From Ignavibacteriota bacterium (GTDB taxonomy: Bacteria > Bacteroidota > Ignavibacteria > UBA10030), in contig PLMK01000006.1 of NCBI GenBank assembly GCA_003142475.1, positions 10,225-74,224 of the forward strand: 64,000 nucleotides of DNA, read 5' to 3'. The notes below the pieces were generated by a model that saw only the letters and a program-made list of their open reading frames with translations, was not told the origin of the DNA and did not search any database. This document shows positions 24,760-44,304 of the stretch, piece after piece. The first letter of the stretch is position 1, and every line of letters begins with the position of its first letter. Position numbers and translations under genes: made by a program.

Positions 24760-25730
24760 ATGTTGTATATTTTAGGTAGTTAAATAACCTAAGGAACATT
24801 ATGAAAACCGTTGCAAAACATACCGAACCGAAAATACAAAGCTTATTAGATGTTGAAAAAGTATTCCCAGATGAAAAAACATGTATTGAATATATGATTC
24901 AAAAGCGTTGGAACGGTAAGCCAAGATGCCCACACTGTGATAGTGAAAAAGTATATCGCTATTCAGACAACAAGCGGTTCAAGTGCCCCGCTTGTGCTAA
25001 ACAGTTCACAATAAAAATTGGTACCATCTTTGAAGATTCACCTCTTTCATTGCAAAAATGGTTCTTTGCAATATTCTTACTTACAGCACACAAAAAAGGA
25101 ATTTCATCTTGTCAATTGGCAAGAGATATTCATGTAACACAAAAATCAGCATGGTTTATGACTCAAAGAATTCGTGAATTGATGAAAACAAATTCCTTTG
25201 AAAAGAAATTAAACGGAATAGTTGAAGCAGATGAAACTTACGTCGGCGGAAAGAAACATAGTGGCAAACGTGGACGCGGTTCTGAGAACAAAACGCCAGT
25301 ATTCGGAATGGTAGCAAGACAGGGCGACGTAAGGACTATGCCAGTTGAAAGAGTGAACGGCGAAACCTTAAAAGGACTTATCCGAAAGAACGTAGACCTT
25401 AACGCCGTAGTAATGACAGACGAATGGACTGCGTATAATAATCTTTCCAATGAATTCAAACATGAAGTAATCAACCACAGTTCAAAAGAATATGTGAGAG
25501 GCAATATTCACACAAACAACATTGAAAACTTTTGGAGTTTGCTTAAACGCGGTATAGTAGGAATTTATCATCATGTTGATCCTAAACATTTACATCGCTA
25601 TACCGATGAATTTCAGTATCGTTATAATTCAAGAAAAATTACCGACGCAGATAGATTCACGCAAATTTTAAGTCAATGCGAAGGACGCTTGACATATGCA
25701 ACGCTTATTAATAAATAGGTGTTATTATGA
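24760..25730 (+). mobile_element. IS1595-family insertion sequence (ends not resolved)
   Basis: Contains a single IS1595-type transposase gene. Terminal inverted repeats could not be identified by eye, so boundaries are approximate. Confidence 0.5.
24801..25718 (+). CDS. IS1595-family transposase
   Basis: N-terminal zinc-ribbon (CPHCDSEKVYRY...KCPACAKQF), then ...SLQKWFFAIFLLTAHKKGISSCQLARDIHVTQKSAWFMTQRIRE... and a DDE core (VEADETYVGG...MTDEW). 305 aa. Confidence 0.85.
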   Translation: MKTVAKHTEPKIQSLLDVEKVFPDEKTCIEYMIQKRWNGKPRCPHCDSEKVYRYSDNKRFKCPACAKQFTIKIGTIFEDSPLSLQKWFFAIFLLTAHKKGISSCQLARDIHVTQKSAWFMTQRIRELMKTNSFEKKLNGIVEADETYVGGKKHSGKRGRGSENKTPVFGMVARQGDVRTMPVERVNGETLKGLIRKNVDLNAVVMTDEWTAYNNLSNEFKHEVINHSSKEYVRGNIHTNNIENFWSLLKRGIVGIYHHVDPKHLHRYTDEFQYRYNSRKITDADRFTQILSQCEGRLTYATLINK

Positions 25731-26705: not shown

Positions 26706-28127
26706 ATGGGACCAATAAAGACAGATGTGATCGTTATCGGCGAAGGCATTACCGGACTTTGTATTGCTTACTGGTTGAAGAAACGCGGCATCAATGTTAC
26801 CGTGCTCGCAAAAGATAGTGAAGTGGGTGGAACAATGAAGTCGGTGCAGGAGCAGGGTTTTCTGTATGAAACTGGGGCAAACACCGCGCTGGAAACAACG
26901 TCTCATTTCAAAGAACTTGTTTCCGACTTGAAGTTGGAATCGGAATTTATCTACGCCAACCCGGAAGGCAAGAATCGTTATATACTTCGTGATAATGTTT
27001 TACACTCGATGCCGTTAGGCCCCGGTTCTTTTTTCTTTACCAGACTTTTTTCCACTGCCGCAAAATTTCGTGTGATGAAAGAACCATTCATTGGCCGCGC
27101 AGAGAACGAAGAAAGTATTGCCGAGTTTGTTGAACGAAGATTGGGACGCGAATTTCTCGACTATGCCATCGATCCGTTCGTGGCAGGTGTTTTTGCCGGC
27201 AAGACAGAACAATTAAGCGTACGATCTGCTTTTCCCAAACTGTATGCGCTGGAAGAAAAGTACGGCGGATTGGTAAAGGGTATGATCAAAGGCGCGCAGG
27301 AAAGAAAACAACGGGCAGAGAAAGCAAAAGATCGAGCTGAAATTTTTTCATTCGTTAGCGGAATGCAAACATTACCGCAAGCTATAGGTAATTCACTTGG
27401 CAAGGTGATTTTTTTTAACGCAAAAGTAACCGGTATTCGTAACCTGACTACTGAACGTAATGAACCATCTGATGATCCAGATGCGCGGCGTTATCTTGTT
27501 GAGTACCTCTACAATGGCAAAGAGGAAGAAATAGAAGCAAACGTTGTCATCTTTGCCATTCCAGCATACGATGCTGCACCTATCATCAAATCATTATCGG
27601 TGGAAACAGCGAATGTGTTGTCGTCCATTTATTACTCTCCGGTTATCTCTGTATTCTTGGGTGTGAAGCGAGAAGATGTTCGACATAAGTTGGATGGTTT
27701 TGGATTTCTTATCCCATCAAAGGAAAAGCGAAATATCCTTGGTTGTTTGTGGAATTCGTGTTTATTCGGCAATCGTGCGCCTGCTGGAATGGCTGCGTTA
27801 AATGTTTTCGTTGGTGGTGCTCGACAGCCAGAATTGACCGGTTTGAACGATGGACAAATTATTCAAGAAACGCTTGATGAACTAAAATCTATTATGCAAT
27901 TTTCAGGAAAACCCGTATATTTGAATATAACGCGCTGGCAAAAATCTATTCCACAATACGAAATAGGTTACCAGCGGAAAATGGATATGCTCGCTAAATT
28001 TGAAGAATCCAACCAAGGTGTTTTGCTGGCTGGAAACTATCGAGGCGGCATTTCGGTTGGCGATTGTGTGAAAAATGCATTTGAGATTGCAGAGGACGTT
28101 TCCTCGCAGGTACTCTCAACACGTTAG
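26706..28127 (+). CDS. hemY: FAD-dependent protoporphyrinogen oxidase (HemY/PgoX family)
   Basis: N-terminal dinucleotide-binding VIVIGEGITGLCIAYWL, ~470 aa, C-terminal ...WQKSIPQYEIGY... block typical of protoporphyrinogen oxidase (PPOX). Confidence 0.65.
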   Translation: MGPIKTDVIVIGEGITGLCIAYWLKKRGINVTVLAKDSEVGGTMKSVQEQGFLYETGANTALETTSHFKELVSDLKLESEFIYANPEGKNRYILRDNVLHSMPLGPGSFFFTRLFSTAAKFRVMKEPFIGRAENEESIAEFVERRLGREFLDYAIDPFVAGVFAGKTEQLSVRSAFPKLYALEEKYGGLVKGMIKGAQERKQRAEKAKDRAEIFSFVSGMQTLPQAIGNSLGKVIFFNAKVTGIRNLTTERNEPSDDPDARRYLVEYLYNGKEEEIEANVVIFAIPAYDAAPIIKSLSVETANVLSSIYYSPVISVFLGVKREDVRHKLDGFGFLIPSKEKRNILGCLWNSCLFGNRAPAGMAALNVFVGGARQPELTGLNDGQIIQETLDELKSIMQFSGKPVYLNITRWQKSIPQYEIGYQRKMDMLAKFEESNQGVLLAGNYRGGISVGDCVKNAFEIAEDVSSQVLSTR

Positions 28128-28972: not shown

Positions 28973-31222
28973 TTAAATATTATTTTGATTCATTCGACGC
29001 ATCATTGCTATTGTTAAACCGCTAATAATCATCACGGAAGCAATCCACACGAGACTCATAAACGGCTTCACACTAATCTCAGCAATAAGAGTTTCAGGTT
29101 TTTGTATTCCCGTATGCATCATCCCTTTGACGTCAACCACATTAATTTGTACCTGTGACTTCTTTGTACCAGATGCCACGTTCATTGCCACAAGTTGAAA
29201 TCCAAGATGTCCATTCTTGAGATATGCTGTCTTCATCTCAAGATTTCCCTGTGTAGTATATGTTGTTGTTGGTACAATTTCCTGAACATCCTTTTCAGTT
29301 TTGATTTGAAGCACTGCGCCAATGGTGATAGAATTCTCTCCGCCCATCATGCCGCCTTTGCCATGCGCTCCCATATCAAATCTTTGGAAAGTAAGGGTAA
29401 TAGCACCGTAAATCTGTGGTTCATTTTTAACCAGAACAATCAGGTTCTGTTGATTTGTTTCTCCCTGCTCAATGGAAAGCGGCTCAAGATAGAAATCACC
29501 AGCCCACGAACTTACATAGTCTGGAATCCGCATCAGACTATTGTTGTAATTACTTTCGAACATTATTGGCTCGAGGAGTGAGAATTTACCATTGTATTCA
29601 ACGTTGATTGCATACTTTGTCTTCCCATCCTGCGCAGGTTTTGCACCGGTAAAATTCATTTGATAACCAAATGCAGACTTCGGCTGATTCAGTGGAAGCG
29701 CGATAGATTGTTTTTGTCCGTACCTGCCAGATGCGATGATGCCCAAAAATAGAATTGCCAATCCGACATGTGCGAGCGCTCCGCCGATAAAACGTGGTTG
29801 TTCCTTTGCAATTTGGTAACCATGACTGACACTGACAAAGAATGCGAAGAGCGATGTTAGTATGAGCAATGCAGCAAGAATATCATGCAAACCCATTATT
29901 ATGAAAATACCGAGAACGACAAAGGATAAGATGCCGGGAATAATAAGTTTTTTCATAAATAACGGTAGTTCTTCTTTGTTCCATTTTGTACGTAGACTGA
30001 GTCCGAGAAGTAACGTCATTAACACAGCAAGCGGAAGATTGGTACGATCGTAGAACGATGACTCAACCATAGAAGAATAAAAGAGCGGTTTGCTAGTTCC
30101 AAAAAGAATAACTGCTGCGCAGACTCCCATCACAATTGTGGCAATAGTGAGCATAGATTCGCGGTTGAACCATGCACTATGAGGGGTTGCGATTTTCAGT
30201 TCCTTCCACCGTAGAATAGTCATTCCAAATCCACAGAAGGCAATCACTCCTAACCATACGATAAGCAATGAATATGCAAACGTGCCGGGATCCACAAATG
30301 AGTGCACTGAAGCATTTGCAAGAATTCCACTGCGTGTTAAGAACGTACTATAAATAACAAGGAGATATGCCAGTACAGCAAGAATAAAGTTTGTGCGTGC
30401 AAGCTTGCCGGTGAACATCTGAATGAGCATTGTATGAATTAACATAATAGCAACCATCCAGGGAATGAGCGATGAATTCTCCACTGGATCCCAGCCCCAC
30501 CAACCACCCCAGCCCAGCACACCGTACGCCCAATAACCGCCGAGTATAAGACCGACACCAAGCGACATCGCACTGAAAAGTACCCAAGGCAAAGCATTAT
30601 GTAGCCACTTTTCGTACTTTTTCTGCCAGAGAGCGGCAATAGCGAGAACAAATGGAACTGCAAGTGAAGCAAATCCTAAAAACAATATTGGGGGATGGAT
30701 TATCATCCAAAAATTTTGCAATAATGGATTAAGTCCTTTGCCTTCCTGAGGAATAAATCCGGTTGGAACATTGTTCGCTGCTACATCCCAGATTAATTGA
30801 AACGGTGATTTAATTGCAATGAGCAGAAGAAGAAATGAAAGCACAAGCGAGTACGCCGCCATCGCCTCACTTTCTATACGTTCATGCAAGACAGTGCGCT
30901 GCAAAACAAATCCTATAACTGCGGCAAAAAACGCCCAGAGCAAAAAACTGCCTTCTTGTCCGGCCCAGAATGTCGTAATCAATAATTGTATGGGAAGATC
31001 GCGAGAGCTATAGTTTGCAATGTAATTGTACTCAAATCGATGCTGAAGAATGTATACCATAAGCAGTGCAGAAGCTGCGAAGACACCTATGAGGGAAATA
31101 AAAAAGCTTCCGCGCGCAACCAACAACAGCTTCTTTTTTGCTGTCGATATATAATAGAAGTAAGTTGATGCAAGCGTTGCTGCGAACGTAATCCAAATAA
31201 TAACCGAGCCTATCATTTTCAA
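28973..31222 (-). CDS. ccsBA: cytochrome c biogenesis system II protein, fused CcsBA-type (ResB/CcsA)
   Basis: Polytopic membrane protein carrying the CcsA tryptophan-rich WWD motif GWGGWWGWDPVENSSLIPW and conserved His residues. 749 aa with a large C-terminal periplasmic domain. Confidence 0.75.
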   Translation of the reverse strand: MKMIGSVIIWITFAATLASTYFYYISTAKKKLLLVARGSFFISLIGVFAASALLMVYILQHRFEYNYIANYSSRDLPIQLLITTFWAGQEGSFLLWAFFAAVIGFVLQRTVLHERIESEAMAAYSLVLSFLLLLIAIKSPFQLIWDVAANNVPTGFIPQEGKGLNPLLQNFWMIIHPPILFLGFASLAVPFVLAIAALWQKKYEKWLHNALPWVLFSAMSLGVGLILGGYWAYGVLGWGGWWGWDPVENSSLIPWMVAIMLIHTMLIQMFTGKLARTNFILAVLAYLLVIYSTFLTRSGILANASVHSFVDPGTFAYSLLIVWLGVIAFCGFGMTILRWKELKIATPHSAWFNRESMLTIATIVMGVCAAVILFGTSKPLFYSSMVESSFYDRTNLPLAVLMTLLLGLSLRTKWNKEELPLFMKKLIIPGILSFVVLGIFIIMGLHDILAALLILTSLFAFFVSVSHGYQIAKEQPRFIGGALAHVGLAILFLGIIASGRYGQKQSIALPLNQPKSAFGYQMNFTGAKPAQDGKTKYAINVEYNGKFSLLEPIMFESNYNNSLMRIPDYVSSWAGDFYLEPLSIEQGETNQQNLIVLVKNEPQIYGAITLTFQRFDMGAHGKGGMMGGENSITIGAVLQIKTEKDVQEIVPTTTYTTQGNLEMKTAYLKNGHLGFQLVAMNVASGTKKSQVQINVVDVKGMMHTGIQKPETLIAEISVKPFMSLVWIASVMIISGLTIAMMRRMNQNNI

Positions 31223-31386
31223 TCCTTCAATAGAGAGTTATCAATCACTGTTGGTTTACAACAAAAGAGAATACTCAAAGGTTTCATCACAAGGAATAGA
31301 CGGAATAAAACAACAGTGCGGGAGTTCTGGCTCCCGCACTTGTTAAGACAATGGATAATAACGCTTGGGTATTGTTACACCTGCAT

Positions 31387-32670
31387 TTACTTGTTGAGAT
31401 CTGCAATAGAATTATCCAAAAGAGCTTTAACATATTTATAGTTATGAATACCATGACTCTTTTCATATTGAATCTGTTGCAGGTTCCACAATGCACTAGC
31501 CTTGGAAGCCGGAAAAATTACTAACGGTTGTAAGGATGACGCATTAGCGGACCACGTGGAATCACCTGTGACCGCGCTGGCCGTCAGCGTTACCCATGGA
31601 ACAGCTTTTCCACTTTGTGGAAGCGACCACTTCTTCGTTATCGTTGTATCCATCATCATGCTAGCCAATTGTGATGTCTTTGCAATGATTTCATTGCGAA
31701 CCTGTGCCCAATGTGGATCGCTGGCATTGCTTGTTGAAACAGGACTAGAAGAATGACACCCGGTCACATTGCAGCCGTTTACATTGTACGATGGGCTTGT
31801 TGATCCAGAAGCAAGATATCTGACCCAGAATGTATGTCCGCCGTTTTGATTGCTGCTATTAACGGTCGCCATATGGCAATCCTCGCAACCGAGAGTACGC
31901 ATGCCGACCAATGTAGTATGATAGGAATTGTTGTACGGAGTAGGACCTGGAATTTCAACTCCGCCAAAACCTAAAAGAGTTTGTGTCGGTTCACCTGATA
32001 CGTGGTTATTCCATCTGGACGTATAGATCTTTGCTGTATCAGTAGTATTCGTCTTTGATGGATCGGGCTGCCACGATGCTGGTGTCGTGCCGGACTTCCA
32101 CATAAACGTGGAAGTCATACGTGGTTGATGGCACTTCACACATAGATTGGATGCATTACTACTATTCCATTGTTTCGTTGTTTGTCCTGCAACAAGTGTA
32201 AAAATATTCACTACACTGGAGTCACGCACAGTAAAATTAGCACGGCTATGTGGTGAATGGCAAGTAAAACAACCGGGAGGCGAAGCATTAGGATAACCTT
32301 GGTTACAAATTGGTCCGGATGGAGCAATTGGATTGAATGTTTCATTCGTAAAACCTTTGCTATAGCGTTCTAAGAAACCTTCATTCGTATGACAGCCAGC
32401 GCAATCAAATGAATTGCGAGCGAAATTACCGCCCTCAAAATGACTGGAGGCTTCATATTGAACTTCTTTAGTAAGTACACGATATGTTGTATCCAGATCT
32501 GGATTGTGGCAGGTCGCGCATTTAATACCGGGCGCAAAACCCTCGAGGGTGCTCTCTGAAGCATCTTTACCAGCAGGACCAGTAGGACCTTCTTTACAGC
32601 CAGACATAGCCGCAATTACAAAGATACCTATCCCCAAGATAGTAATACCCCAAAATATTTTTTTCACCAT
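31387..32670 (-). CDS. multiheme c-type cytochrome lipoprotein (5 CxxCH + 1 CX4CH)
   Basis: Lipobox AAMSGC. CATCH, CAGCH, CFTCH, CVKCH, CEDCH and CNVTGCH. Ser/Thr/Asn-rich linker regions. Confidence 0.8.
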   Translation of the reverse strand: MVKKIFWGITILGIGIFVIAAMSGCKEGPTGPAGKDASESTLEGFAPGIKCATCHNPDLDTTYRVLTKEVQYEASSHFEGGNFARNSFDCAGCHTNEGFLERYSKGFTNETFNPIAPSGPICNQGYPNASPPGCFTCHSPHSRANFTVRDSSVVNIFTLVAGQTTKQWNSSNASNLCVKCHQPRMTSTFMWKSGTTPASWQPDPSKTNTTDTAKIYTSRWNNHVSGEPTQTLLGFGGVEIPGPTPYNNSYHTTLVGMRTLGCEDCHMATVNSSNQNGGHTFWVRYLASGSTSPSYNVNGCNVTGCHSSSPVSTSNASDPHWAQVRNEIIAKTSQLASMMMDTTITKKWSLPQSGKAVPWVTLTASAVTGDSTWSANASSLQPLVIFPASKASALWNLQQIQYEKSHGIHNYKYVKALLDNSIADLNK

Positions 32671-32765
32671 AAAAACGCCTTTAGGCTAAAGTAAATAGTT
32701 AATTTTAGTAATTTTTATATTTTTGGGTTTTCGTTTTAAATATCTTATGAATTCTTTCAGTTTTA

Positions 32766-33656
32766 TTATCGAAAATTAAGCACTACTCCACCGGCAAGAT
32801 CAATTTTTCCGTTTATATGCTTTGCTTTGTTTTTAATATTGCCTGAAGCATCCATCACATCTCCATGACATGTATAACATATCGTCAAAGCGGAAGGTTT
32901 ATGACCATTCGGTGGCAAAGTATGACAAGTGGTCGTACTGCCGCAACTTTTTTCTACTGGACCACCATTCCAGCGAGGTGCATAACTAGCACCGGTCATT
33001 ATACTAGTGGTAAACATCGTGGTATCAGGCGAACCTACTTTTGGAAGACGCCACGCTCCATGGCAGAATGTATTCGTGCATGTCATAGAACTTGGATCAT
33101 ATGTCGGGGTAGGTGTTATACCACTGCTTGTGAGATTAGCCAAGGGATCATTCAGAATAACTTCTGCACGTCCATCTGCACTGATATGAGCTGGATCATA
33201 AATACTCGTCGGCATGTGATGGCACGCATCGCATAACATACTATGGGATGAATAGGTCCCGTTGCCGATAAAATGGATTTGATGAGCTCCTACACCATGG
33301 GCTGTATATGAAGTGCTTCCATCGAGAGCCGGTGCGGGGGGCATGCCATGACAGGTTGCACAATTTTGCGGACCACCAGGTGCTGTATGGCAAATATTGC
33401 ATGATTTTCCTGATATCCCTCCAGTATAGTCAGCACCATGACAAGATTGGCAGACGTGCATATCCCAATTATTATTTTGGATCGCTTTGCCATGAAAATT
33501 GGCAGAAGTAGTATCCGTCCACCCTTGTACATGAATTTGCAACTCATCACTCTCTTCTGTCGGCAAATCCTTCTTCAAATCGCTGCATGAGCTAAGGAAA
33601 AGAATAAGCACAAGAGTTGTAAAAATCGAGATTATATAGTGTCTCTTCATATTCAA
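32766..33656 (-). CDS. multiheme c-type cytochrome lipoprotein (5 CxxCH + CX4CH/CX5CH)
   Basis: Lipobox FLSSCS. CQSCH, CNICH, CATCH, CDACH, CYTCH, CTNTFCH and CGSTTTCH. Confidence 0.8.
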   Translation of the reverse strand: MNMKRHYIISIFTTLVLILFLSSCSDLKKDLPTEESDELQIHVQGWTDTTSANFHGKAIQNNNWDMHVCQSCHGADYTGGISGKSCNICHTAPGGPQNCATCHGMPPAPALDGSTSYTAHGVGAHQIHFIGNGTYSSHSMLCDACHHMPTSIYDPAHISADGRAEVILNDPLANLTSSGITPTPTYDPSSMTCTNTFCHGAWRLPKVGSPDTTMFTTSIMTGASYAPRWNGGPVEKSCGSTTTCHTLPPNGHKPSALTICYTCHGDVMDASGNIKNKAKHINGKIDLAGGVVLNFR

Positions 33657-33665: not shown

Positions 33666-34877
33666 TTATCGGTGTTGATGGCAATAACCGCAAAATTTTT
33701 GTCCTCTAACACCACTTGGCCGCGCATTGGAATCTGTATGGCACATATAGCATGTCGCACCAGGATCATCATGCCAGCTCCCATGATTACCGGACATAAA
33801 TCCGGGGTCATGAGTTTTTGGATCTGTACCTTTGATGCCGTCAGGATCGTTATGACACGTGATGCATACCGGATCGGTGCCTTCTGAGCCATGACATGCT
33901 GCACACGACTCAATGTCACGTCTTGCCAAGCGGGCATGTTCACCGCCGCCGCTTCCAACTCCTAGCGTTGTAAATCCAGCTACTGCATGTGATGCCGGCT
34001 TGAATGCACTTTGATTTATATTGCCTCCGGCTTCATGACATGTTGAACAATATTTTTCTGAGCTGTGGCAAGTTTGACATTCCAATGCCTTACCCTTTGC
34101 GGCAATACCATGTGTGAAGCGGAAATTCAAATCGTGTATTTTTGTCAAACGCATTTCTTGTCCTCGATCGATTGCTGTGAGACGCGGCGATCGTTGTGAT
34201 GTAAGATTGCGTCCCGGCACATCTACTTTTATTAATTCCGATCCGTTGTGACAATCGATACAGGTTTCTTGCGAGTGGCAAACGCCGCACTTGGCATCAC
34301 CAAGCCGCGCTAATCGTTTATGTTCATGGATAAAATTTGTACGATTGTGCTCTACAGGACGCAGCGACGCAAAATTGGTATGGCACTTCTCACATGCACC
34401 TGTTGCTTTCGTATCGTTGTGGCAGGAGTTGCATGTTGCCATTGCAGGTACAAGTTCTCCGGTTGCAACACCGGCTTTATCGAGAACAGTATGACATGTT
34501 TCGCATGTTACTTTTTGATCTTCCACATGCTGTTGATGTGAGAACATCAGTTCGCGTATAGGATTTAGTGTCGCTGTATATATTGTAGAATCCGAATTCA
34601 GATGACAATAAGTGCAATTATTCTTCAATGGTTCTTCATGGCAGCTCTTGCAAGCTTCCATCTTCGCAAGAAGATTATCGGATGCTTTTGTGCTCTTTGA
34701 TGCGTCGGTATGGCAATCTATACAGGCGACGCCGGCTTCGCTCACATGGAATTGATGCGAAAATTTTACACCCTTCTGATGTTTATCACCATCGGTTTGT
34801 TCATGTGGTACCAATGCACCGGTGAAGGTAAAAAGCAATGTCAGCACTACGCTGATGAGAAGAAATCCATGCTTCAT
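33666..34877 (-). CDS. periplasmic multiheme c-type cytochrome with 14 CxxCH motifs
   Basis: Signal peptide. 14 CxxCH in 403 aa (about one per 29 aa), a density typical of c7/c3-type poly-triheme cytochromes. Starts 10 nt downstream of the preceding gene. Confidence 0.85.
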   Translation of the reverse strand: MKHGFLLISVVLTLLFTFTGALVPHEQTDGDKHQKGVKFSHQFHVSEAGVACIDCHTDASKSTKASDNLLAKMEACKSCHEEPLKNNCTYCHLNSDSTIYTATLNPIRELMFSHQQHVEDQKVTCETCHTVLDKAGVATGELVPAMATCNSCHNDTKATGACEKCHTNFASLRPVEHNRTNFIHEHKRLARLGDAKCGVCHSQETCIDCHNGSELIKVDVPGRNLTSQRSPRLTAIDRGQEMRLTKIHDLNFRFTHGIAAKGKALECQTCHSSEKYCSTCHEAGGNINQSAFKPASHAVAGFTTLGVGSGGGEHARLARRDIESCAACHGSEGTDPVCITCHNDPDGIKGTDPKTHDPGFMSGNHGSWHDDPGATCYMCHTDSNARPSGVRGQKFCGYCHQHR

Positions 34878-34917: not shown

Positions 34918-36216
34918 TCAGAAAATGTTCAAACGTTCGCCTAAATAATAACTGCCTCGTAAAAAGAGGCGCACATCATTGTTATAAATTTTATTTTGGA
35001 TCCACTGTACCTGCGCATCCAGCGAAAGGGCCGGAATTGGGCGGTACACCGCTCCGACAGCACCGCTTAGAGCATCTGTTATTGGTGCATTGCTGTTTAA
35101 TTTATAGTGTGCATACCCCGCTACAATAGTCGGTGTAAGTTTATTATCAAATAATGGATAACCCGCATTCATAGAAAACGCTGCTAATTCTCCGCCATAA
35201 CCGGTGTTCCAGCTAAAACTTGCCGAGGCGTACTTTATATTGCAGCCAAGTGTAACTTGATTGGAATTGTCATCACCGTATGAAACGGCACCGAACTTCC
35301 CAAATACTTGCCAGTCCTTGCAGATTGCGTATTCGGCGCCAAGTTCATATTCGCTTATCGTGTTATAAGCAAATACCCAGAATATGGAATTATATGAAAG
35401 ATGCGGTTCGCGGTGGATATATTCACCTGTAAGCGAAAACGGTTCCGTTACCCTTACTCGTGTAAAGAATTGAATTCGTGAAAATATTTCCTGATTTAAA
35501 TCGAAATCGCTTCGAGCATATGCAGAGATCATGTCGTAGTCAATGCTGATGTCTCCGCTAATATATTGTTCGGCCGTCGCACTTGGAGATATCTCTGTTA
35601 TAACGGGATTGAAAAGGGAGTCTTTTCTGAGCGCCCAGTACGTTTCAGGTTTAATATTTTTCTGCATATAGCTCAATGATACACGTGCAAAGTCCATCGG
35701 CATACCAATCAACTGTGCGCCGAACATATTATTATTTTTCTGATCACTAATCATCTCAAATTTTTGTCCGGGAGATGGCAGAGCACCATAATAACCGAAC
35801 ACCTTCAATCTTGAATCAAGCAATCGGATTGAAGCGATGCCGCCATCGATTGTGCCGTTACCAACGCCTGCAAAGATCGCTTGACGACCGAGACTGATAT
35901 CGACCATTTCAAATAAGTTTGCGTAATTCAAATAAAAATTATAGAACCGAATTGTACCTTCATTTTTTAACGGACCGGCAAAATCGTTAAACCCTTGCAG
36001 ATACGTATGAAACGAAAGATGCTCACCTGCCAACGCGAGCTGTACTGTCTGGTATCCGAACAGGTGGTTGGATGATTGACCTACTGTATCTTGTTGCTGC
36101 CACGCAGAGGCGGAAGAGACAAGTCGCAATTGAAAAAATTGAGCCGATGTTTCACAGAAAAGAAAAATGAACATCGCCAACATCATTAAAATGCTGCGCT
36201 GCATTGGATGTTTCAT
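34918..36216 (-). CDS. outer-membrane beta-barrel (porin-like) protein within the cytochrome cluster
   Basis: Signal peptide, alternating amphipathic beta-strand pattern, and C-terminus ...LGERLNIF ending in Phe (outer-membrane beta-signal). 432 aa. Confidence 0.65.
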   Translation of the reverse strand: MKHPMQRSILMMLAMFIFLFCETSAQFFQLRLVSSASAWQQQDTVGQSSNHLFGYQTVQLALAGEHLSFHTYLQGFNDFAGPLKNEGTIRFYNFYLNYANLFEMVDISLGRQAIFAGVGNGTIDGGIASIRLLDSRLKVFGYYGALPSPGQKFEMISDQKNNNMFGAQLIGMPMDFARVSLSYMQKNIKPETYWALRKDSLFNPVITEISPSATAEQYISGDISIDYDMISAYARSDFDLNQEIFSRIQFFTRVRVTEPFSLTGEYIHREPHLSYNSIFWVFAYNTISEYELGAEYAICKDWQVFGKFGAVSYGDDNSNQVTLGCNIKYASASFSWNTGYGGELAAFSMNAGYPLFDNKLTPTIVAGYAHYKLNSNAPITDALSGAVGAVYRPIPALSLDAQVQWIQNKIYNNDVRLFLRGSYYLGERLNIF

Positions 36217-36326: not shown

Positions 36327-36845
36327 TTATCCTTTGGGAATTGGATGCTTAATCTTTGCCCACATTTCATCAAATTTAAAGGGCTTATAGGATGGACTTT
36401 TCTCGTTGTGGCATGTCTTGCATTTTTTTTCAATCGCTCCCTTATCTTTGAATTCCATTAAGCCCGCAGTAATTGCTTTTGCGTTATCTTTCATAATTGA
36501 AAAAGCCTTGTATGCTGAACCCGCACCGTGGCAAGTTTCGCATTGCACTCCATCGGCAGTGAGCTTAGTATCAGCTGTAATGGCATGGCACTCGAGGCAT
36601 TCAGGTGATTCATTTGCCGCCTTTTTCAATCCCCTTGCCTTAGTAATTTCGGCTGCTTTAGTCTCAGTTAAAGTTTTATAAGCTTCGGCGTGTTTGCTCT
36701 TCTGCCAAATTTCGAATTGTGCACCTTTCTTTTCGCCTTTATGGCACATACCACACATTTTAGCTCCAATATACTTGTTCTGGGCAAATGTGGAAAGTGA
36801 AAGCAGGAACAAAGTCGCAAGAAGAAATGTAATCGCCTTCTGCAT
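36327..36845 (-). CDS. periplasmic tetraheme c-type cytochrome
   Basis: Signal peptide. CGMCH, CLECH, CETCH, CKTCH. 172 aa, Lys-rich. Confidence 0.8.
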   Translation of the reverse strand: MQKAITFLLATLFLLSLSTFAQNKYIGAKMCGMCHKGEKKGAQFEIWQKSKHAEAYKTLTETKAAEITKARGLKKAANESPECLECHAITADTKLTADGVQCETCHGAGSAYKAFSIMKDNAKAITAGLMEFKDKGAIEKKCKTCHNEKSPSYKPFKFDEMWAKIKHPIPKG

Positions 36846-37074: not shown

Positions 37075-38583
37075 CTACTCTTCTGCGTTATGGCAGTCGC
37101 TACAATTTATTTCTTTCCATGAATCTCCGATGTCTACAGGATGTTGGTATTGGACACCATCCAGCGAAACACTGTTTTCTCCTTTTCCAAAACTCTGAGC
37201 AAGAATTGTATGACAAACAGAACATTCGTTCGTGAGGATTTTCCCATCTTCTCTAATATGTTTATTATCATGGCATCGGAAACAACCTTTATAAAAAAGG
37301 TGACCAATATTGTTTGGAAAATGTCGCCATGTGACAGCCATTGTTGGAAAGTAATTTCGCGCATAAAACTTTTGGACTGTTGAAACCATCTGGCTAATTG
37401 CTGCGCTTTTTTCTGAAGCAACCTGAGGATAATTCGTTTTGTAATATCCTTCAATCGCAAGCCGGATACTATCCTGTGCGACATTTGAAGAAGAATATGT
37501 TTGATCAAGTGCCTTGACAGCAATGCTTTTTGCATATGGTAACTTTGAATCTATCAATCCGGCTGATATAACATGATCTACCGTCGGTACCGGGGGATGA
37601 TAGATGTGCGAGGGACGATTATGACAATCGATGCAATCCATCGTGCGTTTTTCTAACAATGCTAACGAATCTTCGGTGATAGGATTTTCGAGGTTGCGAT
37701 AGATATGTTCAGTTCCGTCTTTTTTACTTTTTACTTTAATCCATGGAATAATTTGACGCTGCCTATCTGCCGGTGCGTACGTAATTGCATTTGCAATATT
37801 CATGTTCCAATGAATACCTCCCGAAAGTCCGGTTTCTTCGTTTCCCCCGCCAACTTTGATAAGTAAATCCAAATTCCATCGTGTATTGGTTTCATCAGAG
37901 AGAAAATACGATTTCGATACACGCATTTCGCTAAAGAAATGCTTCGGCCAATGACATTGCTCGCATGTTTCTTGTGCTGGTCGAAGATTCTCGATTGGTG
38001 TGGCAATAGGGCGTGAATATTTATTGAAGATAGTGGAATACACCTGATATGCGCCGGAGAGCTTAGAGCGTACAAACCATCCAGCACCGGGACCTATGTG
38101 GCATTTTGCACAACCGACATGCGCATGTGGCGAACTGTTATAAGCTGTATATTCCGGCTCCATAACTTTATGGCACATAGTTCCACAGAATTCATCGGAA
38201 TCAGTATACTCGTAAGCTTTGAAACTGCCGAAGGCTGAGAAAATTAAGAGCAGCAATGCACCAAATGAAAACCAAAAGAACGCATTCCGTTGCTTTGGAT
38301 CATTTAAATCAATACGTGGTAATTTGAGATCTTGCGGCAGTCCTTGTTTCTCACGTCTGTGCTCACGCCAAATACCATAGAACACAAGTATAAGTCCAAA
38401 GAGAACGAATATTGGAAGAATAATAAATGTAAGAATGCCTATGTAGGGTTTCTGCTCTCCTTCAAACAGATCAAGGACAGTCAAGAAGAGCACAAGTCCG
38501 AAACTCACCGATGCAATTGCCGCACCGATCAGTGTCCGCAAATTATAAAATGCCGGCGGGAAAATGCGCTTCATATATTTCAT
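37075..38583 (-). CDS. inner-membrane multiheme c-type cytochrome (7 haem motifs), ImcH/NapC-NirT-like putative quinol dehydrogenase
   Basis: Two N-terminal transmembrane helices, then CGTMCH (CX3CH) plus CAKCH, CEQCH, CIDCH, CFRCH, CSVCH, CSDCH. About 500 aa. Confidence 0.6.
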   Translation of the reverse strand: MKYMKRIFPPAFYNLRTLIGAAIASVSFGLVLFLTVLDLFEGEQKPYIGILTFIILPIFVLFGLILVFYGIWREHRREKQGLPQDLKLPRIDLNDPKQRNAFFWFSFGALLLLIFSAFGSFKAYEYTDSDEFCGTMCHKVMEPEYTAYNSSPHAHVGCAKCHIGPGAGWFVRSKLSGAYQVYSTIFNKYSRPIATPIENLRPAQETCEQCHWPKHFFSEMRVSKSYFLSDETNTRWNLDLLIKVGGGNEETGLSGGIHWNMNIANAITYAPADRQRQIIPWIKVKSKKDGTEHIYRNLENPITEDSLALLEKRTMDCIDCHNRPSHIYHPPVPTVDHVISAGLIDSKLPYAKSIAVKALDQTYSSSNVAQDSIRLAIEGYYKTNYPQVASEKSAAISQMVSTVQKFYARNYFPTMAVTWRHFPNNIGHLFYKGCFRCHDNKHIREDGKILTNECSVCHTILAQSFGKGENSVSLDGVQYQHPVDIGDSWKEINCSDCHNAEE

Positions 38584-38784: not shown

Positions 38785-40092
38785 CTAACACTTAGGATTT
38801 TGTAAATATTCTTCAAGCATCTGACGAAACGAAGGGTGCGCTATCGCAATGAGTGCTTCCGCACGCTGGTGCAGATTTTTTCCATGAAGAGAGGCTACAC
38901 CATATTCCGTCACTACATAATGTACATCTGCCCGTGAAGTAACTACTCCGGCGCCGGACTGTAGCTGGGGTACGATGCGAGATACTGTTCCCTTCTTCGT
39001 AGTTGAGGACAAGGCAATGATCGGTTTGCCTCCTTTTGAATGAGCAGCTCCGCGCACAAAATCCACTTGTCCGCCGAAACCACTATAAATTTTAGTGCCG
39101 ATAGAATCAGCACATACCTGCCCCGTAATATCCACCTCGATACAGGAATTTATCGCAACCATTTTATCGTTTTGCGCTATAATAAAAGGATTGTTTGTAT
39201 AATCGCAAGGATGTATTTCGAACAGTGGATTGTTGTGAACATAGTCGTACAATTTTTTAGTGCCCATAACAAAGGTTGCAACAACCTTGCCCGAATGAAT
39301 CGTTTTTTTCTGACTTGTGATAATGCCTTTTTCAATTGCTTCTACTACGCCGTCGGAAATCATTTCTGTGTGAATACCCAAATGCTGTTTGCCTTCGATA
39401 CGTGCAAGCACAGCATCCGGAATGCCGCCGATACCCAATTGAAGCGTTGCTCCATCTTCAATAATTGGAGTAATAAAATCTGCAATTTTTGCTTCGATAT
39501 CTGAAGCTGTCGTCGGTTTTAATTCCATAATGGGAATAGAACATTCAACAATTTTATGAACTCGTGAAACGTGTATGAATACATCGCCTAAAGTACGCGG
39601 CATGCACTCATTCACTTGTGCTATAACAATCTTCGCATTTTCTGCCGCTGCTTTCGAAGCAGCGCATTCAACACCAAAACTCATAAAACCATGTGCATCG
39701 GGCGGCGAAACATGAATGAACGCAACATCGAGAGGTATGTATTCATCACAAAATAATGACGGGACCTGCGAAAGATGAATTGGTACATAATCAGAAATTC
39801 CATCAGCAATAGATTGACGGTCACCGGGACCAACAAAAAACGAGTTGTGCCGGAAATGGTTATTCATGTCCGGCTTGGAAAGCGGGTCGCCTCCAAATAA
39901 TAAAATATGATTGACTTCAACGTTTGAAAGTTCCTGCGCACGTTTTGCCAGCGCTTCTGTCAATAGAAGAGGCGTTGCCGCGTTGCCGCTGAGAAAAATC
40001 CGGTCATTCGATTTGACAACCTTGACCGCTTCCTCAACTGTCACAACTTTCGACTTGTATTGATCAAGCCAATTCATAATTATTCCTATCAA
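38785..40092 (-). CDS. acetyl-CoA hydrolase/transferase family protein (4-hydroxybutyrate/succinyl-CoA:acetate CoA-transferase-like)
   Basis: Full-length family similarity (GGQVDFVRGA..., ...SGFGGQ...). 435 aa. Confidence 0.7.
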   Translation of the reverse strand: MIGIIMNWLDQYKSKVVTVEEAVKVVKSNDRIFLSGNAATPLLLTEALAKRAQELSNVEVNHILLFGGDPLSKPDMNNHFRHNSFFVGPGDRQSIADGISDYVPIHLSQVPSLFCDEYIPLDVAFIHVSPPDAHGFMSFGVECAASKAAAENAKIVIAQVNECMPRTLGDVFIHVSRVHKIVECSIPIMELKPTTASDIEAKIADFITPIIEDGATLQLGIGGIPDAVLARIEGKQHLGIHTEMISDGVVEAIEKGIITSQKKTIHSGKVVATFVMGTKKLYDYVHNNPLFEIHPCDYTNNPFIIAQNDKMVAINSCIEVDITGQVCADSIGTKIYSGFGGQVDFVRGAAHSKGGKPIIALSSTTKKGTVSRIVPQLQSGAGVVTSRADVHYVVTEYGVASLHGKNLHQRAEALIAIAHPSFRQMLEEYLQNPKC

Positions 40093-41225
40093 GCTTTATT
40101 GAGCGGAGAGTTGAGTAATGTTTGAATGTCTTCTGCTTTTAAATCGAATGCCTTGGCGGAAGCGTTGTTCGTACAACATCCGCGGAATGTGCATACTCCC
40201 TTAGAAAGTCCGACATCAGCACGAAGCACTTGTTCCATTCCAAGTTCAGTCGCTTCTCTCAAGAACGGAAGAAGAACATTTGTCCATCCAACAGTTGCAG
40301 TGCGCGGGACTAATGCAGGTGTATTGGGAACACAATAATGCACTATGCCATGAGTAATATAAACAGGATCGGTTATTGTCGTTGGACGGCTCGTTTCAAT
40401 ACAACCGCCTTGATCAATGGAAATATCAACAATAACAGAACCGGGTTTCATCTGTTTCACTAAATCTTCAGAAACTAAGTGTGGCGTCTTTTCCCCTTTT
40501 AATAGAACAGCTCCAATAAGCGCATCTGCTTCCCGCACTGCACACTCAATATTATATTGATCAGAAACGGCAGTGGCAATTCTCCACTGAAACAAATTCT
40601 CCACTTCGCGCAGGCGGCCGATGTTCTTGTCAATAATCATCACTTTCGCCCCAAGTCCGAGTGCAACACGCGCAGCGGTGCGTCCCACAGTTCCAGCGCC
40701 AAGAATGAGCACATCGGCGGCAGGTACACCGGGAACACTTCCCAAGAGTACACCGCGTCCGCCTTGGCGTGCTTGCAAATAGTGCGCAGCTACTTGAATC
40801 GAAATTTGCCCGGCAATTTCTGCCATGGTCTGAACTATCGGTAGTTCACAATGTTCATTTTCTATCAATTCATATCCGATTGCAGTGATTTTTTTTTCTA
40901 GAAATGTTTCTATTGTTTTACGTTTGGAAATGGCGAGGTGCAATGCTGAAAAAAAGGTCTGTCCTTCGTGCAAAAGTTTTAGTTCCGAATCAGCTGGCGG
41001 TGCAATTTTCAAAACTATATCTGAACGATTAATAACTTCTTCCGGACTGTACACAATGACGGCGCCTGCATTGCTGTATTCATCGTCCGTAAAGAAACTA
41101 AGTGCTCCAGCATTCCGTTCTACATACACAATAGCGCCCAAGCTCACTAATGTTTGCACGCCACCTGGCGTCAGTGCTACGCGTCGTTCCGATGGAGCTA
41201 TTTCTTTCAGTATGCCGATGTTCAT
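40089..41225 (-). CDS. alanine dehydrogenase/PNT-family NAD(P)-dependent dehydrogenase
   Basis: N-terminal KEIAPSERRVALTPGGV and Rossmann LILGAGTVGRTAARVALGLGAKV. ATGA overlap with the downstream CoA-transferase. Confidence 0.65.
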   Translation of the reverse strand: MNIGILKEIAPSERRVALTPGGVQTLVSLGAIVYVERNAGALSFFTDDEYSNAGAVIVYSPEEVINRSDIVLKIAPPADSELKLLHEGQTFFSALHLAISKRKTIETFLEKKITAIGYELIENEHCELPIVQTMAEIAGQISIQVAAHYLQARQGGRGVLLGSVPGVPAADVLILGAGTVGRTAARVALGLGAKVMIIDKNIGRLREVENLFQWRIATAVSDQYNIECAVREADALIGAVLLKGEKTPHLVSEDLVKQMKPGSVIVDISIDQGGCIETSRPTTITDPVYITHGIVHYCVPNTPALVPRTATVGWTNVLLPFLREATELGMEQVLRADVGLSKGVCTFRGCCTNNASAKAFDLKAEDIQTLLNSPLNKA

Positions 41226-41462
41226 GCCGATAATCCTTCCTATAATATATTTCTTGCCGTACCTTAGAAAATGATTATGTGAAGTGCAAGATGCATTCTC
41301 AGTTTGCTATGATTCTATTTTATAATGGTACTGTGAAGGAAAAAAGGTAATAATATTTAAGGTTGACACGTTGAAGTTCTTTGGTCTTCATACCAGAACC
41401 TCCGTTCAAAATTCATAGGAATAATATTTCTAAATAAGAATATGCTCTTTGTTTAAGCAGTC

Positions 41463-41786
41463 TTACAAGAATTCAGGATTGCATTCAGAGATGACGCCAT
41501 TACTTACTTGACCGCAGGCGCGGATTTCATTCAGTTTCTGATTAATGTGCAGCACAATGCGACTCTTTTCTTCTAAAAGTTCACGTACAAAAGAATTCAC
41601 AGCCGGATAATCGCATTCCGTCATAATTGTCTCATAGAATTGGATCATCTCTGCTTCTTTTCGCATTGCCTCAGTCAACATTTTACATGTGATACGACAG
41701 TCATGGTTGCATTTCGCATTACCAGACTCAATTGCATGTTCACTCCATGCTTGAATTGCGGATTGTGTGTTTTCTATCTGCTTCAT
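41463..41786 (-). CDS. hypothetical small Cys-containing protein
   Basis: ORF is translationally coupled (4-nt overlap) to the OFOR gamma subunit. Six Cys in 107 aa. Confidence 0.35.
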   Translation of the reverse strand: MKQIENTQSAIQAWSEHAIESGNAKCNHDCRITCKMLTEAMRKEAEMIQFYETIMTECDYPAVNSFVRELLEEKSRIVLHINQKLNEIRACGQVSNGVISECNPEFL

Positions 41787-42358
41787 CGTACCACCATTTC
41801 AGTTGCCACTTGTATTGCTAATTCTTTACCTCGTGCTAAAGCTTGCTCATTGAGAGGAATCAAATGTTGTCTATGCGGAGGCAGGACACTGTGTAGAGCA
41901 CTTATTACATGTTCCAACTTTACAATAGGACGCATCTCAAGGAAAGCGCCGAGTAAAATCATGTTTGCCACTTGTTTACTCTTGAGTTTTTGAGCTTCTT
42001 CTAATCCGGGAATGGCAAGAACCTCAATGTCTTTTCTCGACGGCGGACGAAGTATCGTGGATTTTTCATAGATCAAAATGCCACCCGGTTTCACAGCATT
42101 TTCAAATTTTTCAATCGACGGCTGATTTAATACAATTGCAGTATCAAACTTCGTGATAATAGGAGAACTGATGCGTGAATCAGAAACTATTACAGTGCAA
42201 TTCGCTGTGCCGCCGCGCATCTCAGGGCCGTACGAAGGCATCCAACTCACTTCTTTCTTTCCTTCCATTGCAGCGTATGCAATGATTTGTCCCATTGAAA
42301 GAACGCCCTGACCGCCAAAGCCGGCAATAATTATTTCTTGAGTCATGCTCATATTCAT
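41783..42358 (-). CDS. 2-oxoacid:ferredoxin oxidoreductase, gamma subunit
   Basis: IIIAGFGGQGVLSMGQIIAYAAM...GPEMRGG, typical of PorG/KorC. Confidence 0.85.
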   Translation of the reverse strand: MNMSMTQEIIIAGFGGQGVLSMGQIIAYAAMEGKKEVSWMPSYGPEMRGGTANCTVIVSDSRISSPIITKFDTAIVLNQPSIEKFENAVKPGGILIYEKSTILRPPSRKDIEVLAIPGLEEAQKLKSKQVANMILLGAFLEMRPIVKLEHVISALHSVLPPHRQHLIPLNEQALARGKELAIQVATEMVVR

Positions 42359-42422
42359 AATCGCTTTATTATCTAAGAATTTATTGTTTCACCATCTTTA
42401 CAGATTTCTATGATATTCCAAA

Positions 42423-43232
42423 TTAACTCTTTGGCACTTTAATATCACCAAGTGGATAAATTGGAAACATGTTTTTCTCTAGCCACTCGTTGGATTCTAC
42501 TGGTGTCATTTTCCAACCGGACGGACAATTAGAGACAATCTCAATAAAACAAGTTCCTTTTTTTTCTTTTTGGTATTTGAATGACGTAGAAATTGCTTTT
42601 TTCAACTTACGTACGGCTGCCGTATTGTGTACCGAGTGCCGTGAGACGTAGTACGCACCGGGAAGCTGTGCAAGCATTTCTGTAATCTTCAATGGATTGC
42701 CCATTGTCGCTACTTCGCGTCCAAATGGTGATGTTGTTGTTTTCATGCCCAATATTGATGTCGGAGCCATTTGACCACCAGTCATTCCGTATATACCGTT
42801 ATTGATGAAGAGCATGAGAATATTTTCACCGCGGTTAACTGTATGAATTGTTTCACCAGTACCAATTGCCGCAAGATCGCCGTCGCCTTGATAAGAAAAA
42901 ACATATTTATCGGGAAGGACACGCTTGACTCCTGTCGCTACAGCACTTGCGCGTCCGTGTGCCGCTTCCTGCATGTCGATGTTCATATAATCGTACGCAA
43001 AGACAGCGCATCCGACCGGCGCAACGCCGATAGTTTCTTCCTGAATATTCATTTCCTCAATAACTTCCATCAGAATTTTATGCACTACACCATGTCCGCA
43101 TCCCGGGCAATAGTGTGTCGGCGTGTCGGTAAGCGTTTTAGGCTTTGCATAAACGACTTCTAATCCGTCAATATTCGTTGCTGTTTCCATTTCTTCCATC
43201 CTATGCATGCGCCGTTTGAAATTCTTTGGCAA
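42423..43232 (-). CDS. 2-oxoacid:ferredoxin oxidoreductase, beta subunit (TPP-binding)
   Basis: CPGCGHG motif and GDG...N TPP-binding block. Confidence 0.85.
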   Translation of the reverse strand: MPKNFKRRMHRMEEMETATNIDGLEVVYAKPKTLTDTPTHYCPGCGHGVVHKILMEVIEEMNIQEETIGVAPVGCAVFAYDYMNIDMQEAAHGRASAVATGVKRVLPDKYVFSYQGDGDLAAIGTGETIHTVNRGENILMLFINNGIYGMTGGQMAPTSILGMKTTTSPFGREVATMGNPLKITEMLAQLPGAYYVSRHSVHNTAAVRKLKKAISTSFKYQKEKKGTCFIEIVSNCPSGWKMTPVESNEWLEKNMFPIYPLGDIKVPKS

Positions 43233-44304
43233 TTGATTCCACTTTTATCAGTACTTCTTCCGGTGATGGAATCATTCCGCCCATCCGTCCGTAAAAATGT
43301 ACCGGGCATTTGCCATTAATTGCAAGCCGCACATCTTCCACCATTTGTCCCGCATTCATCTCAACCGTCAGAAATACTTTTGCATGCTTCGCTAACTTTG
43401 CAAGCGCATTTGTTGGAAATGGATACAGGGTGATGGGACGAAGCAATCCAACCTTTAATCCTTTTTCGCGTGCCAAGTTCATTGTCTTATCACAAATGCG
43501 GGATGTTAATCCGAATGCGACAAGAACAATTTCTGCATCTTCGGTCTGGTATTCTTCCCAGCGAACTTCCTTCTGCAATTGATTGTATTTTTCTTGCAGG
43601 ACTAAATTCAATTTCTCCATTCGCTCCGGTTGGATGAAAAGAGAAGTAATAATATTTCGTTCGCGCGAATTCGGTTTGCCTATCGTCGCCCAAGGGGCAT
43701 TCGTTTTTGGCAAAGAACCAGCCACAGGTAATGTAACCTTTTCCATCATCTGACCGAGAGCACCGTCGGCAAGAATCATCGCCGGATTACGGTACTTCTC
43801 CGTTAAACGAAACGCATCGAATATAAAATCTACCATTTCCTGCACAGACGATGGTGCAAGGACGATAAGATGATAATCACCATGACCGCCACCTTTTACT
43901 GCCTGAAAATAATCTGCTTGTGAAGGCTGAATAGTGCCAAGACCGGGTCCGCCTCGCTGAACATTTACAATTACTGCCGGCAATTGCGCTGACGCCATAT
44001 ACGAAAGACACTCCTGCATTAAACTAATACCGGGGCTGGAAGATGAAATCATTACCCGCGCACCAACACCGGAAGCACCATGCACCATATTAATAGCCGC
44101 AATTTCGCTCTCTGCTTGCAGTATCACAACACCCGGATAATTTGGTGCCTGAATTGAAAGATACTCCATTACTTCTGTTTGCGGTGTAATTGGATATCCA
44201 AAGTATGCCTGCATACCCGCACGCAAAGCGGCCTCTGCAAGAGCTTCGTTGCCTTTCATTAATCGAGTGTTAGATTTTCCGTTTCCACTTGCCATGTTTT
44301 TCAC
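43201..44304 (-). CDS. 2-oxoacid:ferredoxin oxidoreductase, alpha subunit
   Basis: LMKGNEALAEAALRAG...YFGYPITPQTEV N-terminus typical of PorA/KorA. Confidence 0.85.
   Translation of the reverse strand: MKNMASGNGKSNTRLMKGNEALAEAALRAGMQAYFGYPITPQTEVMEYLSIQAPNYPGVVILQAESEIAAINMVHGASGVGARVMISSSSPGISLMQECLSYMASAQLPAVIVNVQRGGPGLGTIQPSQADYFQAVKGGGHGDYHLIVLAPSSVQEMVDFIFDAFRLTEKYRNPAMILADGALGQMMEKVTLPVAGSLPKTNAPWATIGKPNSRERNIITSLFIQPERMEKLNLVLQEKYNQLQKEVRWEEYQTEDAEIVLVAFGLTSRICDKTMNLAREKGLKVGLLRPITLYPFPTNALAKLAKHAKVFLTVEMNAGQMVEDVRLAINGKCPVHFYGRMGGMIPSPEEVLIKVESIAKEFQTAHA

Follow-up and report, generated by a model that had tools for sequence, protein, structure and literature searches.

What is a cytochrome with 14 haems used for in the bacterium that encodes it? 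This question is raised by a 64,000-nucleotide stretch of DNA from an uncultured Ignavibacteriota bacterium (GenBank assembly GCA_003142475.1, contig PLMK01000006.1, positions 10,225 to 74,224), referred to here as the window. The gene at positions 33666..34877 of the window, on the minus strand, encodes a 403-residue c-type cytochrome with 14 CxxCH motifs and matches to the Pfam families Cytochrome_C7 and Cytochrom_CIII. The initial annotation of the locus proposed that the protein is a free periplasmic wire or capacitor. We consider another role more probable, at roughly three chances in four: as the haem wire in a porin-cytochrome (Pcc)-type conduit through the outer membrane, the protein would face the periplasm and be inserted into a β-barrel. 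The gene located directly upstream, which had been missed, encodes a predicted barrel of this kind and makes a Pcc conduit likelier than a free periplasmic wire or capacitor.

The open reading frame of the 14-haem protein starts with ATG, comprises 403 codons, and ends with the tandem stops TAA TAG. The CxxCH motifs are located at residues 52, 76, 88, 125, 149, 162, 197, 206, 267, 277, 325, 338, 376, and 396, and all 28 cysteines of the protein fall inside them. The density is one motif per 28.8 residues, in agreement with the 14 motifs and the spacing of ~29 residues reported in the initial annotation. Shuffling the protein 2000 times produced 0.15 motifs on average and three at most; therefore, the observed number is far beyond chance. 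The N-terminus, MKHGFLLISVVLTLLFTFTGALVP, is hydrophobic and signal-like (cleavage was judged by eye) and does not contain a lipobox cysteine. Its hydrophobic segment (residues 1–22; 34812..34877, minus strand), with a helix predicted by AlphaFold2 at residues 2–22, may be a Sec signal peptide or an uncleaved signal anchor. The description of the protein as an exported, very haem-dense c-type cytochrome was thus sustained. One of the defining components of a Pcc cluster is a multihaem c-type cytochrome, periplasmic or located in a barrel, that is exported but has no lipoprotein signal.

The other defining components are encoded next to the 14-haem protein, and all neighbours of its gene in the cluster are on the minus strand. 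The gene of the outer-membrane β-barrel (34918..36216, minus strand) ends 40 nucleotides upstream. It encodes a "porin-like" protein of 432 residues with a signal peptide ending in TSA/QF, assigned from the AlphaFold2 model, fold matches, and synteny. The model has a predicted local distance difference test score (pLDDT) of 84.6 and contains 24 strand elements. Its best fold matches are the 24-strand usher pores FimD and PapC, which indicate a wide-lumen barrel and not a diffusion porin of 16–18 strands. MtrB forms a 26-strand barrel from about 700 residues. The window barrel is predicted to have 22–24 strands and, by analogy with MtrB, a lumen of the size class able to hold a cytochrome.

Two genes of lipoprotein multihaem cytochromes follow the 14-haem gene. 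The first (32766..33656, minus strand) encodes 296 residues with the lipobox LSSC, five CxxCH motifs, one CX4CH, one CX5CH, and a TIGR01904 CxxxxCH/CxxCH domain, and its product is the likely surface partner of the 14-haem protein. The gene begins 9 nucleotides after the stop of the 14-haem gene, if the start is TTG, or 15 nucleotides after it, if the start is the ATG at 33650 used in public gene calls. The ~10-nucleotide spacing given in the initial annotation is close to these distances; the lipoprotein gene, however, is located downstream of the 14-haem gene and does not precede it, as had been stated. The preceding gene is that of the barrel. The second lipoprotein cytochrome (31387..32670, minus strand) comprises 427 residues with the lipobox MSGC, five CxxCH motifs, and one CX4CH. 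In both lipoprotein cytochromes, charged residues stand immediately after the lipidated cysteine (C-SDLKKD... and C-KEGPTG...; 32700-33650 and 32590-32670, minus strand), an arrangement reminiscent of the surface-export signal of Bacteroidota lipoproteins.

The composition of the cluster is conserved. A database search with the 14-haem protein identified 1085 homologues (E ≤ 0.001). Nearly all of the best 120 are ~410 residues long, apart from a few shorter fragments, and have essentially the same set of Pfam matches. Where they are named, they are listed as "cytochrome c3 family" or "c(7)-type cytochrome triheme protein" from metagenome-assembled genomes of Ignavibacteriales or Bacteroidota. 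A scan of one genome per species found 105 loci, and the best 80 were compared with seven proteins of the window using tblastn. According to their record titles, the 80 loci belong mostly to metagenome-assembled genomes of Ignavibacteriota, Ignavibacteria, or unclassified Bacteroidota from peat (SPRUCE), fens, groundwater, and other metagenomes; the top match is 88% identical, and the type strain of Ignavibacterium album is not among the best 80 of the 105 loci. The barrel gene is located immediately upstream of the 14-haem homologue in all 77 loci with upstream DNA, and the remaining three end at a contig edge. A homologue of the lipoprotein cytochrome adjoins the 14-haem gene in 74 of the 80 loci, nearly always directly downstream, which bears out the tight linkage suggested in the initial annotation. 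A small c554-like cytochrome is encoded in 55 loci, a CcmF-family haem lyase downstream in 47, an ImcH-like protein within 8 kb in 38, and a second lipoprotein cytochrome in 33.

The number of haems is nearly constant. Among the homologous reading frames of the species representatives, down to 38% identity, 70 of 79 have exactly 14 motifs, seven encode a ~350-residue variant with 12, and two are truncated. The 12-haem variant (~340–353 residues; loci L058, L060, L065, L068, L069, L078, and L079) retains the context of barrel, cytochrome, and lipoprotein genes. A profile search of 1.84 billion representative sequences found 234 proteins at E ≤ 1e-30, together with many shorter relatives of ~290–360 residues that match in two separate stretches. 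The shorter relatives may include, for example, OmaB-like or Anaeromyxobacter-type 12-haem proteins. Together with the 12-haem variant, they may form a bridge between the family and Pcc cytochromes with 12 haems in other phyla. The lipoprotein cytochrome downstream varies in size from ~240 residues with 4–6 haems to 875 residues with 18+3 motifs (loci L011, L021, L027, L030, L032, and L046). Since the barrel and the 14-haem protein remain constant, evolutionary change seems to be concentrated in the surface module.

As judged from sequence, the architecture of the 14-haem protein is 3+3+4+4 haems: two c7-type trihaem units are followed by two tetrahaem c3-like units, all described here with minus-strand positions. 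The first unit, D1 (residues 32–100; 34578..34784), contains haems at C52, C76, and C88 and distal histidines 41 and 44; D2 (residues 101–175; 34353..34577) contains haems at C125, C149, and C162 and distal histidines 114 and 117. Both were delimited by profile-profile alignment with hhalign and by conservation, D1 also by matches to GSU1996 and PpcA, and D2 by profile matches in the PDB. They carry the c7 signature FSHxxH...CxxCH...CxxCH...CxxCH and align to each other with 98.8% probability and 38% identity, as a tandem duplication. The tetrahaem unit D3 (residues 176–290; 34008..34352; hhalign and conservation) contains haems at C197, C206, C267, and C277 and the invariant histidines 177, 186, 248, and 256. 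The c3-like unit D4 (residues 291–403; 33669..34007; Pfam, hhalign, and conservation) contains haems at C325, C338, C376, and C396 and the invariant histidines 297, 314, 356, and 369. D3 and D4 share the pattern H..H..CxxCH..CxxCH..H..H..CxxCH..CxxCH and align with 96.8% probability (E 2.5e-10). Self-alignment, proposed in the initial annotation as a check of repeat periodicity, thus revealed two types of domain repeat.

Family and structure databases support the same division. With a cut-off of 24.8 bits, Pfam Cytochrome_C7 gives a score of 67.3, Cytochrom_CIII covers residues 320–400 (E 2.5e-10), and the NCBIfam model TIGR04257 (nanowire_3heme) reaches 34.1 bits, under its cut-off of 40. In a profile search of the PDB, the top match is GSU1996 (3OV0, E 1.3e-29), restricted to residues ~40–180. 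ActA of alternative complex III (ACIII) follows (E 7e-16 to 1.5e-12, residues ~16–212; 8k9e_A with E 7e-16, 6lod_A, and 6btm_A), and then single c7/PpcA proteins. The five haems of ActA correspond in the profile alignment to haems 1, 2, 4, 5, and 7 of the window protein. The C-terminal half, with its eight haems in tetrahaem units, has no match in a profile search of all PDB sequences. The proposal that the protein is a polymer of c7/c3-type triheme domains therefore holds for residues 32–175, the only part with tandem trihaem domains, and fails for the C-terminal 228 residues, which consist of the two tetrahaem units.

The residues expected to bind the haems are strongly conserved. Alignments of 30 and 112 homologues with 53–86% identity show no exception to any of the 14 motifs, nor to 12 histidines outside of the motifs, namely the distal and invariant histidines listed above for D1–D4. 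Every haem has a candidate sixth ligand, and the protein contains no CxxCK motif. Met146 and Met361 are kept in at least 90% of the aligned sequences. Met146 is positioned three residues ahead of the second CxxCH of D2; its equivalent in D1 is Met73 in the window protein, a position at which family members have M, H, K, or Q. Because a methionine stands three residues before the second CxxCH in each c7 unit, one or two His/Met haems are plausible there. The N-terminal 30 residues show no conservation within the family.

Upstream of the barrel, the cluster encodes two further cytochromes. In the direction of transcription, the order is ImcH-like protein, c554-like protein, β-barrel, 14-haem protein, two lipoprotein cytochromes, a hairpin, and a CcmF/NrfE-family lyase. 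The ImcH-like inner-membrane cytochrome (37075..38583, minus strand) comprises 502 residues, with three hydrophobic helices at the N-terminus followed by haem motifs and a NapC/NirT region; of the seven motifs, the foremost is a CX3CH (CGTMCH at residue 133). These features match every hallmark given for Geobacter ImcH (PMC4251993). Since the ImcH-like gene belongs to the same string as the porin-cytochrome genes, a complete pathway from quinol to the cell surface may be encoded together. The c554-like protein (36327..36845, minus strand; PF13435, E 1.4e-14) is a small periplasmic 4-haem cytochrome of 172 residues and a candidate shuttle. In most of the loci L002-L009 and L011-L025, as in L003 (157-5738), the ImcH-like and c554-like genes are separated by ~3 kb containing three extra genes; they encode a Rieske protein (151 residues), a cytochrome b (357 residues), and a large multihaem cytochrome that has a membrane helix at its C-terminus. 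The same relatives encode a CbcL-like fusion of haem c and cytochrome b upstream. Neither the window nor its closest relative, L001, contains the Rieske, cytochrome b, large multihaem, and CbcL-like genes.

A cluster of this kind has been described before. The definition of porin-cytochrome (pcc) gene clusters by Shi, Fredrickson & Zachara (2014) came with a list that includes a cluster of Ignavibacterium album JCM 16511, in which IALB_1840 is a periplasmic cytochrome, IALB_1839 is porin-like, IALB_1838 is a periplasmic cytochrome of "400 aa, 14 haem", and IALB_1837 is an outer-membrane cytochrome with an atypical haem motif (PMC4245776). The porin and cytochrome of I. album are only distantly related to those of Geobacter and fall outside all five Geobacter-centred phylogenetic groups (PMC4245776). 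OmbB-like porin-cytochrome complexes have also been reported in metagenomic genomes of Ignavibacteria, with M. roseus cited (PMC7399161). The window resembles the I. album cluster in the length of ~400 residues and 14 CxxCH motifs of the central protein, and in the order of small cytochrome, porin-like barrel, 14-haem protein, and lipoprotein with atypical CXnCH motifs. The c554-like gene corresponds in position to IALB_1840, and the CX4CH motifs and lipoboxes of the downstream cytochromes match the account of IALB_1837 (PMC4245776). A search seeded with a low-GC relative reached a 90%-identity cluster containing a 400-residue, 14-haem protein labelled Ignavibacterium sp., which aligns with the window protein over the full length and at all motifs (E 1e-96), but shares only 39% identity with it. 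At its locus (L084), the 400-residue protein is accompanied by a 177-residue c554-like protein, an unannotated protein of 421 residues in the barrel position, and a 308-residue cytochrome, in agreement with the arrangement published for I. album. The window cluster is larger than this locus, with three additions: the ImcH-like gene next to it, the gene of a second lipoprotein cytochrome, and that of the CcmF-family lyase.

Based on the gene order and the module map, a path of electrons can be proposed. The ImcH-like inner-membrane cytochrome would oxidise menaquinol, and the electrons would pass, probably via the small 4-haem cytochrome, into the 14-haem protein at its N-terminal c7 pair, which would face the periplasm. 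Its 14 haems, closely packed and presumably bis-His for the most part, would act as one wire. The C-terminal tetrahaem units would lie inside of the 22–24-strand barrel and hand the electrons over to one or two surface lipoprotein cytochromes, and these would in turn reduce acceptors outside of the cell, for example Fe(III) minerals or humic substances. If extended, the 14-haem chain would measure ~12 nm, estimated from ~3 nm per trihaem domain in GSU1996. The modular anatomy, its conservation, and the gene triad are shown by the sequences. Barrel insertion, the orientation of the protein, the order and direction in which electrons move, and the acceptor are features that we infer by analogy with Geobacter Pcc complexes and Shewanella MtrCAB; the axial ligands, too, are putative.

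The closest functional parallels are found in Geobacter and Shewanella. In OmaB-OmbB-OmcB and ExtABCD of Geobacter sulfurreducens, a periplasmic multihaem cytochrome, a porin-like barrel, and one or more lipoprotein cytochromes are likewise encoded together, and an ImcH-type quinol oxidase is used in the Geobacter pathway. Two lipoprotein cytochromes are said, in work by Chan et al. in 2017, to be present also in ExtABCD. The number of haems differs: OmaB has 8, ExtA 12, and the window protein 14. Similar to MtrA of Shewanella MtrCAB, the window protein would be a haem wire with little secondary structure that is placed inside of a large barrel and touches a surface lipoprotein cytochrome. Unlike MtrA, with which no homology was detected, it has 14 instead of 10 haems, and its barrel is a protein of 432 residues and ~22–24 strands.

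Several points weigh against the assignment to a Pcc conduit. The NCBIfam model of the MtrA/DmsE family (TIGR03508) does not match the 14-haem protein at E ≤ 0.01, and the analogy with MtrCAB is therefore functional, not homologous. AlphaFold2 prediction of the 14-haem protein from the 112-sequence alignment resulted in a mean pLDDT of 56.8 and a predicted template modelling score of 0.40; the model is confident only at residues ~35–170, which comprise the two c7 units, and the pLDDT of the C-terminal half is below 50. We infer the entry of the protein into the barrel from gene context and analogy. Its N-terminal segment could be an uncleaved anchor instead of a signal peptide, and sequence alone does not fix the direction of electron flow. 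Our reading of the literature found no experimental work on the 14-haem family, with IALB_1838 mentioned only by Shi et al. 2014. The sameness of the 400-residue Ignavibacterium protein and IALB_1838 is deduced from length, haem count, genus, and synteny.

The free periplasmic role favoured in the initial annotation is now an improbable alternative. In this explanation, the 14-haem protein is a soluble, GSU1996-like wire or capacitor, and the barrel does something else, such as secreting the lipoprotein cytochromes or anchoring them as a pore. The closest solved relative, the dodecahaem GSU1996 of G. sulfurreducens (PDB 3OV0), is a linear, crescent-shaped haem wire 12 nm long, in which each domain has one His/Met haem, and it is a proposed periplasmic capacitor (PMC10138318). 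The window protein resembles it in the c7 tandem of its N-terminal half, the FSHxxH...CxxCH signature, the haem density, and the presence of one methionine per c7 unit placed as a candidate His/Met ligand, and it does not have a lipobox, as suits a soluble protein. However, the similarity spans only two of the four domains of GSU1996 (window residues ~40–180). GSU1996 has no reported association with a barrel (PMC10138318), whereas the gene of the window protein and its homologues adjoins that of the barrel in 77 of 77 loci and is nearly always located between the barrel and lipoprotein cytochrome genes. A haem count fixed at 14, or at 12 in the shorter variant, suits a fixed spanning distance better than a storage capacity. 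Furthermore, the cluster already encodes a separate small 4-haem periplasmic cytochrome.

Similarly improbable is a conduit that runs inward, in which, similar to MtoAB and PioAB, electrons are taken up from partner cells, cathodes, or donors such as Fe(II) and reduced humics. Porin-cytochrome modules work in both directions in other lineages, and mtr clusters have been discussed in connection with Fe(II) oxidation (PMC4245776). The possible His/Met haems (M73 and M146) would raise the potentials of the wire, which is consistent with uptake. Nevertheless, the cluster includes an ImcH-like protein, and ImcH of Geobacter is needed for high-potential extracellular acceptors (PMC4251993). Fe(II)-oxidising modules typically do not have surface lipoprotein cytochromes (PMC4245776), whereas the window cluster has two. 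Cultured relatives among the Ignavibacteria are reported as reducers of Fe(III) and As (PMC7399161), which also argues for the outward direction.

There is only a slight chance that the 14-haem protein is tethered to the cytoplasmic membrane by an uncleaved N-terminal helix and serves, like ActA, as the exit subunit of a quinol-oxidising module. The N-terminal helix of ActA is a retained membrane anchor, and the profile alignment pairs it with the N-terminal segment of the window protein, so that the region aligned with ActA (residues ~16–212) includes the hydrophobic N-terminus. This segment has no canonical AXA site and continues for ~20 uncharged residues after the N-terminal charges. A Foldseek search of the PDB with the model of the 14-haem protein returned matches to ActA only. 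However, these matches are weak (TM-score 0.2–0.35) and were obtained with a low-confidence model; the alignment of a hydrophobic helix is weak evidence, and the N-terminal residues are not conserved in the family. Compared to ActA (PDB 6BTM, 6LOD, and 8K9E), the window protein has nine more haems, and neither ActB-F nor other ACIII genes are present in its neighbourhood in the window. Its gene is linked to the barrel gene in 77 of 77 loci, as opposed to 38 of 80 for the ImcH-like gene. An equally slim possibility combines an ActA-like anchor in the inner membrane with C-terminal units plugged into the barrel. The 14-haem protein would then be a single polypeptide of ~12 nm that bridges the quinol oxidase and the cell surface, forming a hard-wired trans-envelope conduit without a diffusing shuttle, built from c7/c3 units independently of MtrA.

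A compact globular enzyme of the HAO, NrfA/NrfB, or octahaem reductase type is very improbable, since the only trace of it is a chance-level profile match to NrfA (6v0a_A, E 0.091), and it is opposed by the string of small c7/c3 units, the candidate sixth ligand of every haem, the absence of CxxCK or another special active-site motif, and the lack of matches to the HAO, c552, NrfB, and MccA families in Pfam and NCBIfam. Homology to HAO or NrfB, which the initial annotation had regarded as incompatible with a linear wire, was looked for and gave no signal in Pfam, NCBIfam, or PDB profiles. On the basis of the same three sources, both an HAO/Nrf-type enzyme and membership in the MtrA family were rejected.

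The periplasm-facing haem wire of a Pcc conduit thus remains the preferred assignment, and its sequence indicates that the window protein is an orthologue-level member of the class published in 2014 for I. album. Since the cluster type was published then, no new mechanism is opened. Peat, fens, aquifers, and anode biofilms commonly harbour Ignavibacteriota, whose capacity for extracellular electron transfer is deduced almost wholly from clusters of this kind. The present analysis adds the 3+3+4+4 module map, the constancy of the 14 haems across the family, and the prediction of a ~24-strand barrel, and it shows that, in this lineage, the conduit is accompanied by an ImcH-like oxidase and a CcmF-family lyase. 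The triad of barrel, 14-haem protein, and lipoprotein cytochrome is a conserved signature of the phylum, found in at least 77 species-level genomes. Structural and genetic studies of the few relatives in culture can be directed at this triad, and surveys of metagenomes for iron and humic reduction can use it as a marker.

The downstream end of the cluster contains a terminator-like hairpin (31315..31340, minus strand) with a 10-bp stem, seven GC pairs, and a T-rich tail, located between the genes of the second lipoprotein cytochrome and the haem lyase. A scan for sigma-70 promoters was uninformative, with 23 sites compared to 28.7 expected. The lyase (28973..31222, minus strand), a protein of 749 residues, was assigned to the CcmF/NrfE family by family searches and synteny. 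Because its gene follows those of the lipoprotein cytochromes carrying CX4CH and CX5CH motifs, the lyase may be dedicated to these atypical motifs; the strong hairpin stands between them. Just past the lyase gene, a flavin amine-oxidase family protein is encoded at 26706-28127 on the plus strand (Pfam Amino_oxidase, E 2e-49). It is possibly protoporphyrinogen-oxidase-like and might thus provide a step of haem biosynthesis. An IS1595-family transposase (24801-25718, plus strand) is encoded ~1 kb beyond it.

On the other side, directly upstream of the cytochrome cluster, positions 38785-44304 (minus strand) encode an acetyl-CoA hydrolase/transferase, an alanine dehydrogenase, and a four-subunit 2-oxoacid:ferredoxin oxidoreductase. 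Public contigs that encode an identical 14-haem protein have these genes beside the cluster as well. Their position, in the window as in the public contigs, suggests that the oxidation of organic acids or amino acids is encoded beside the electron outlet.

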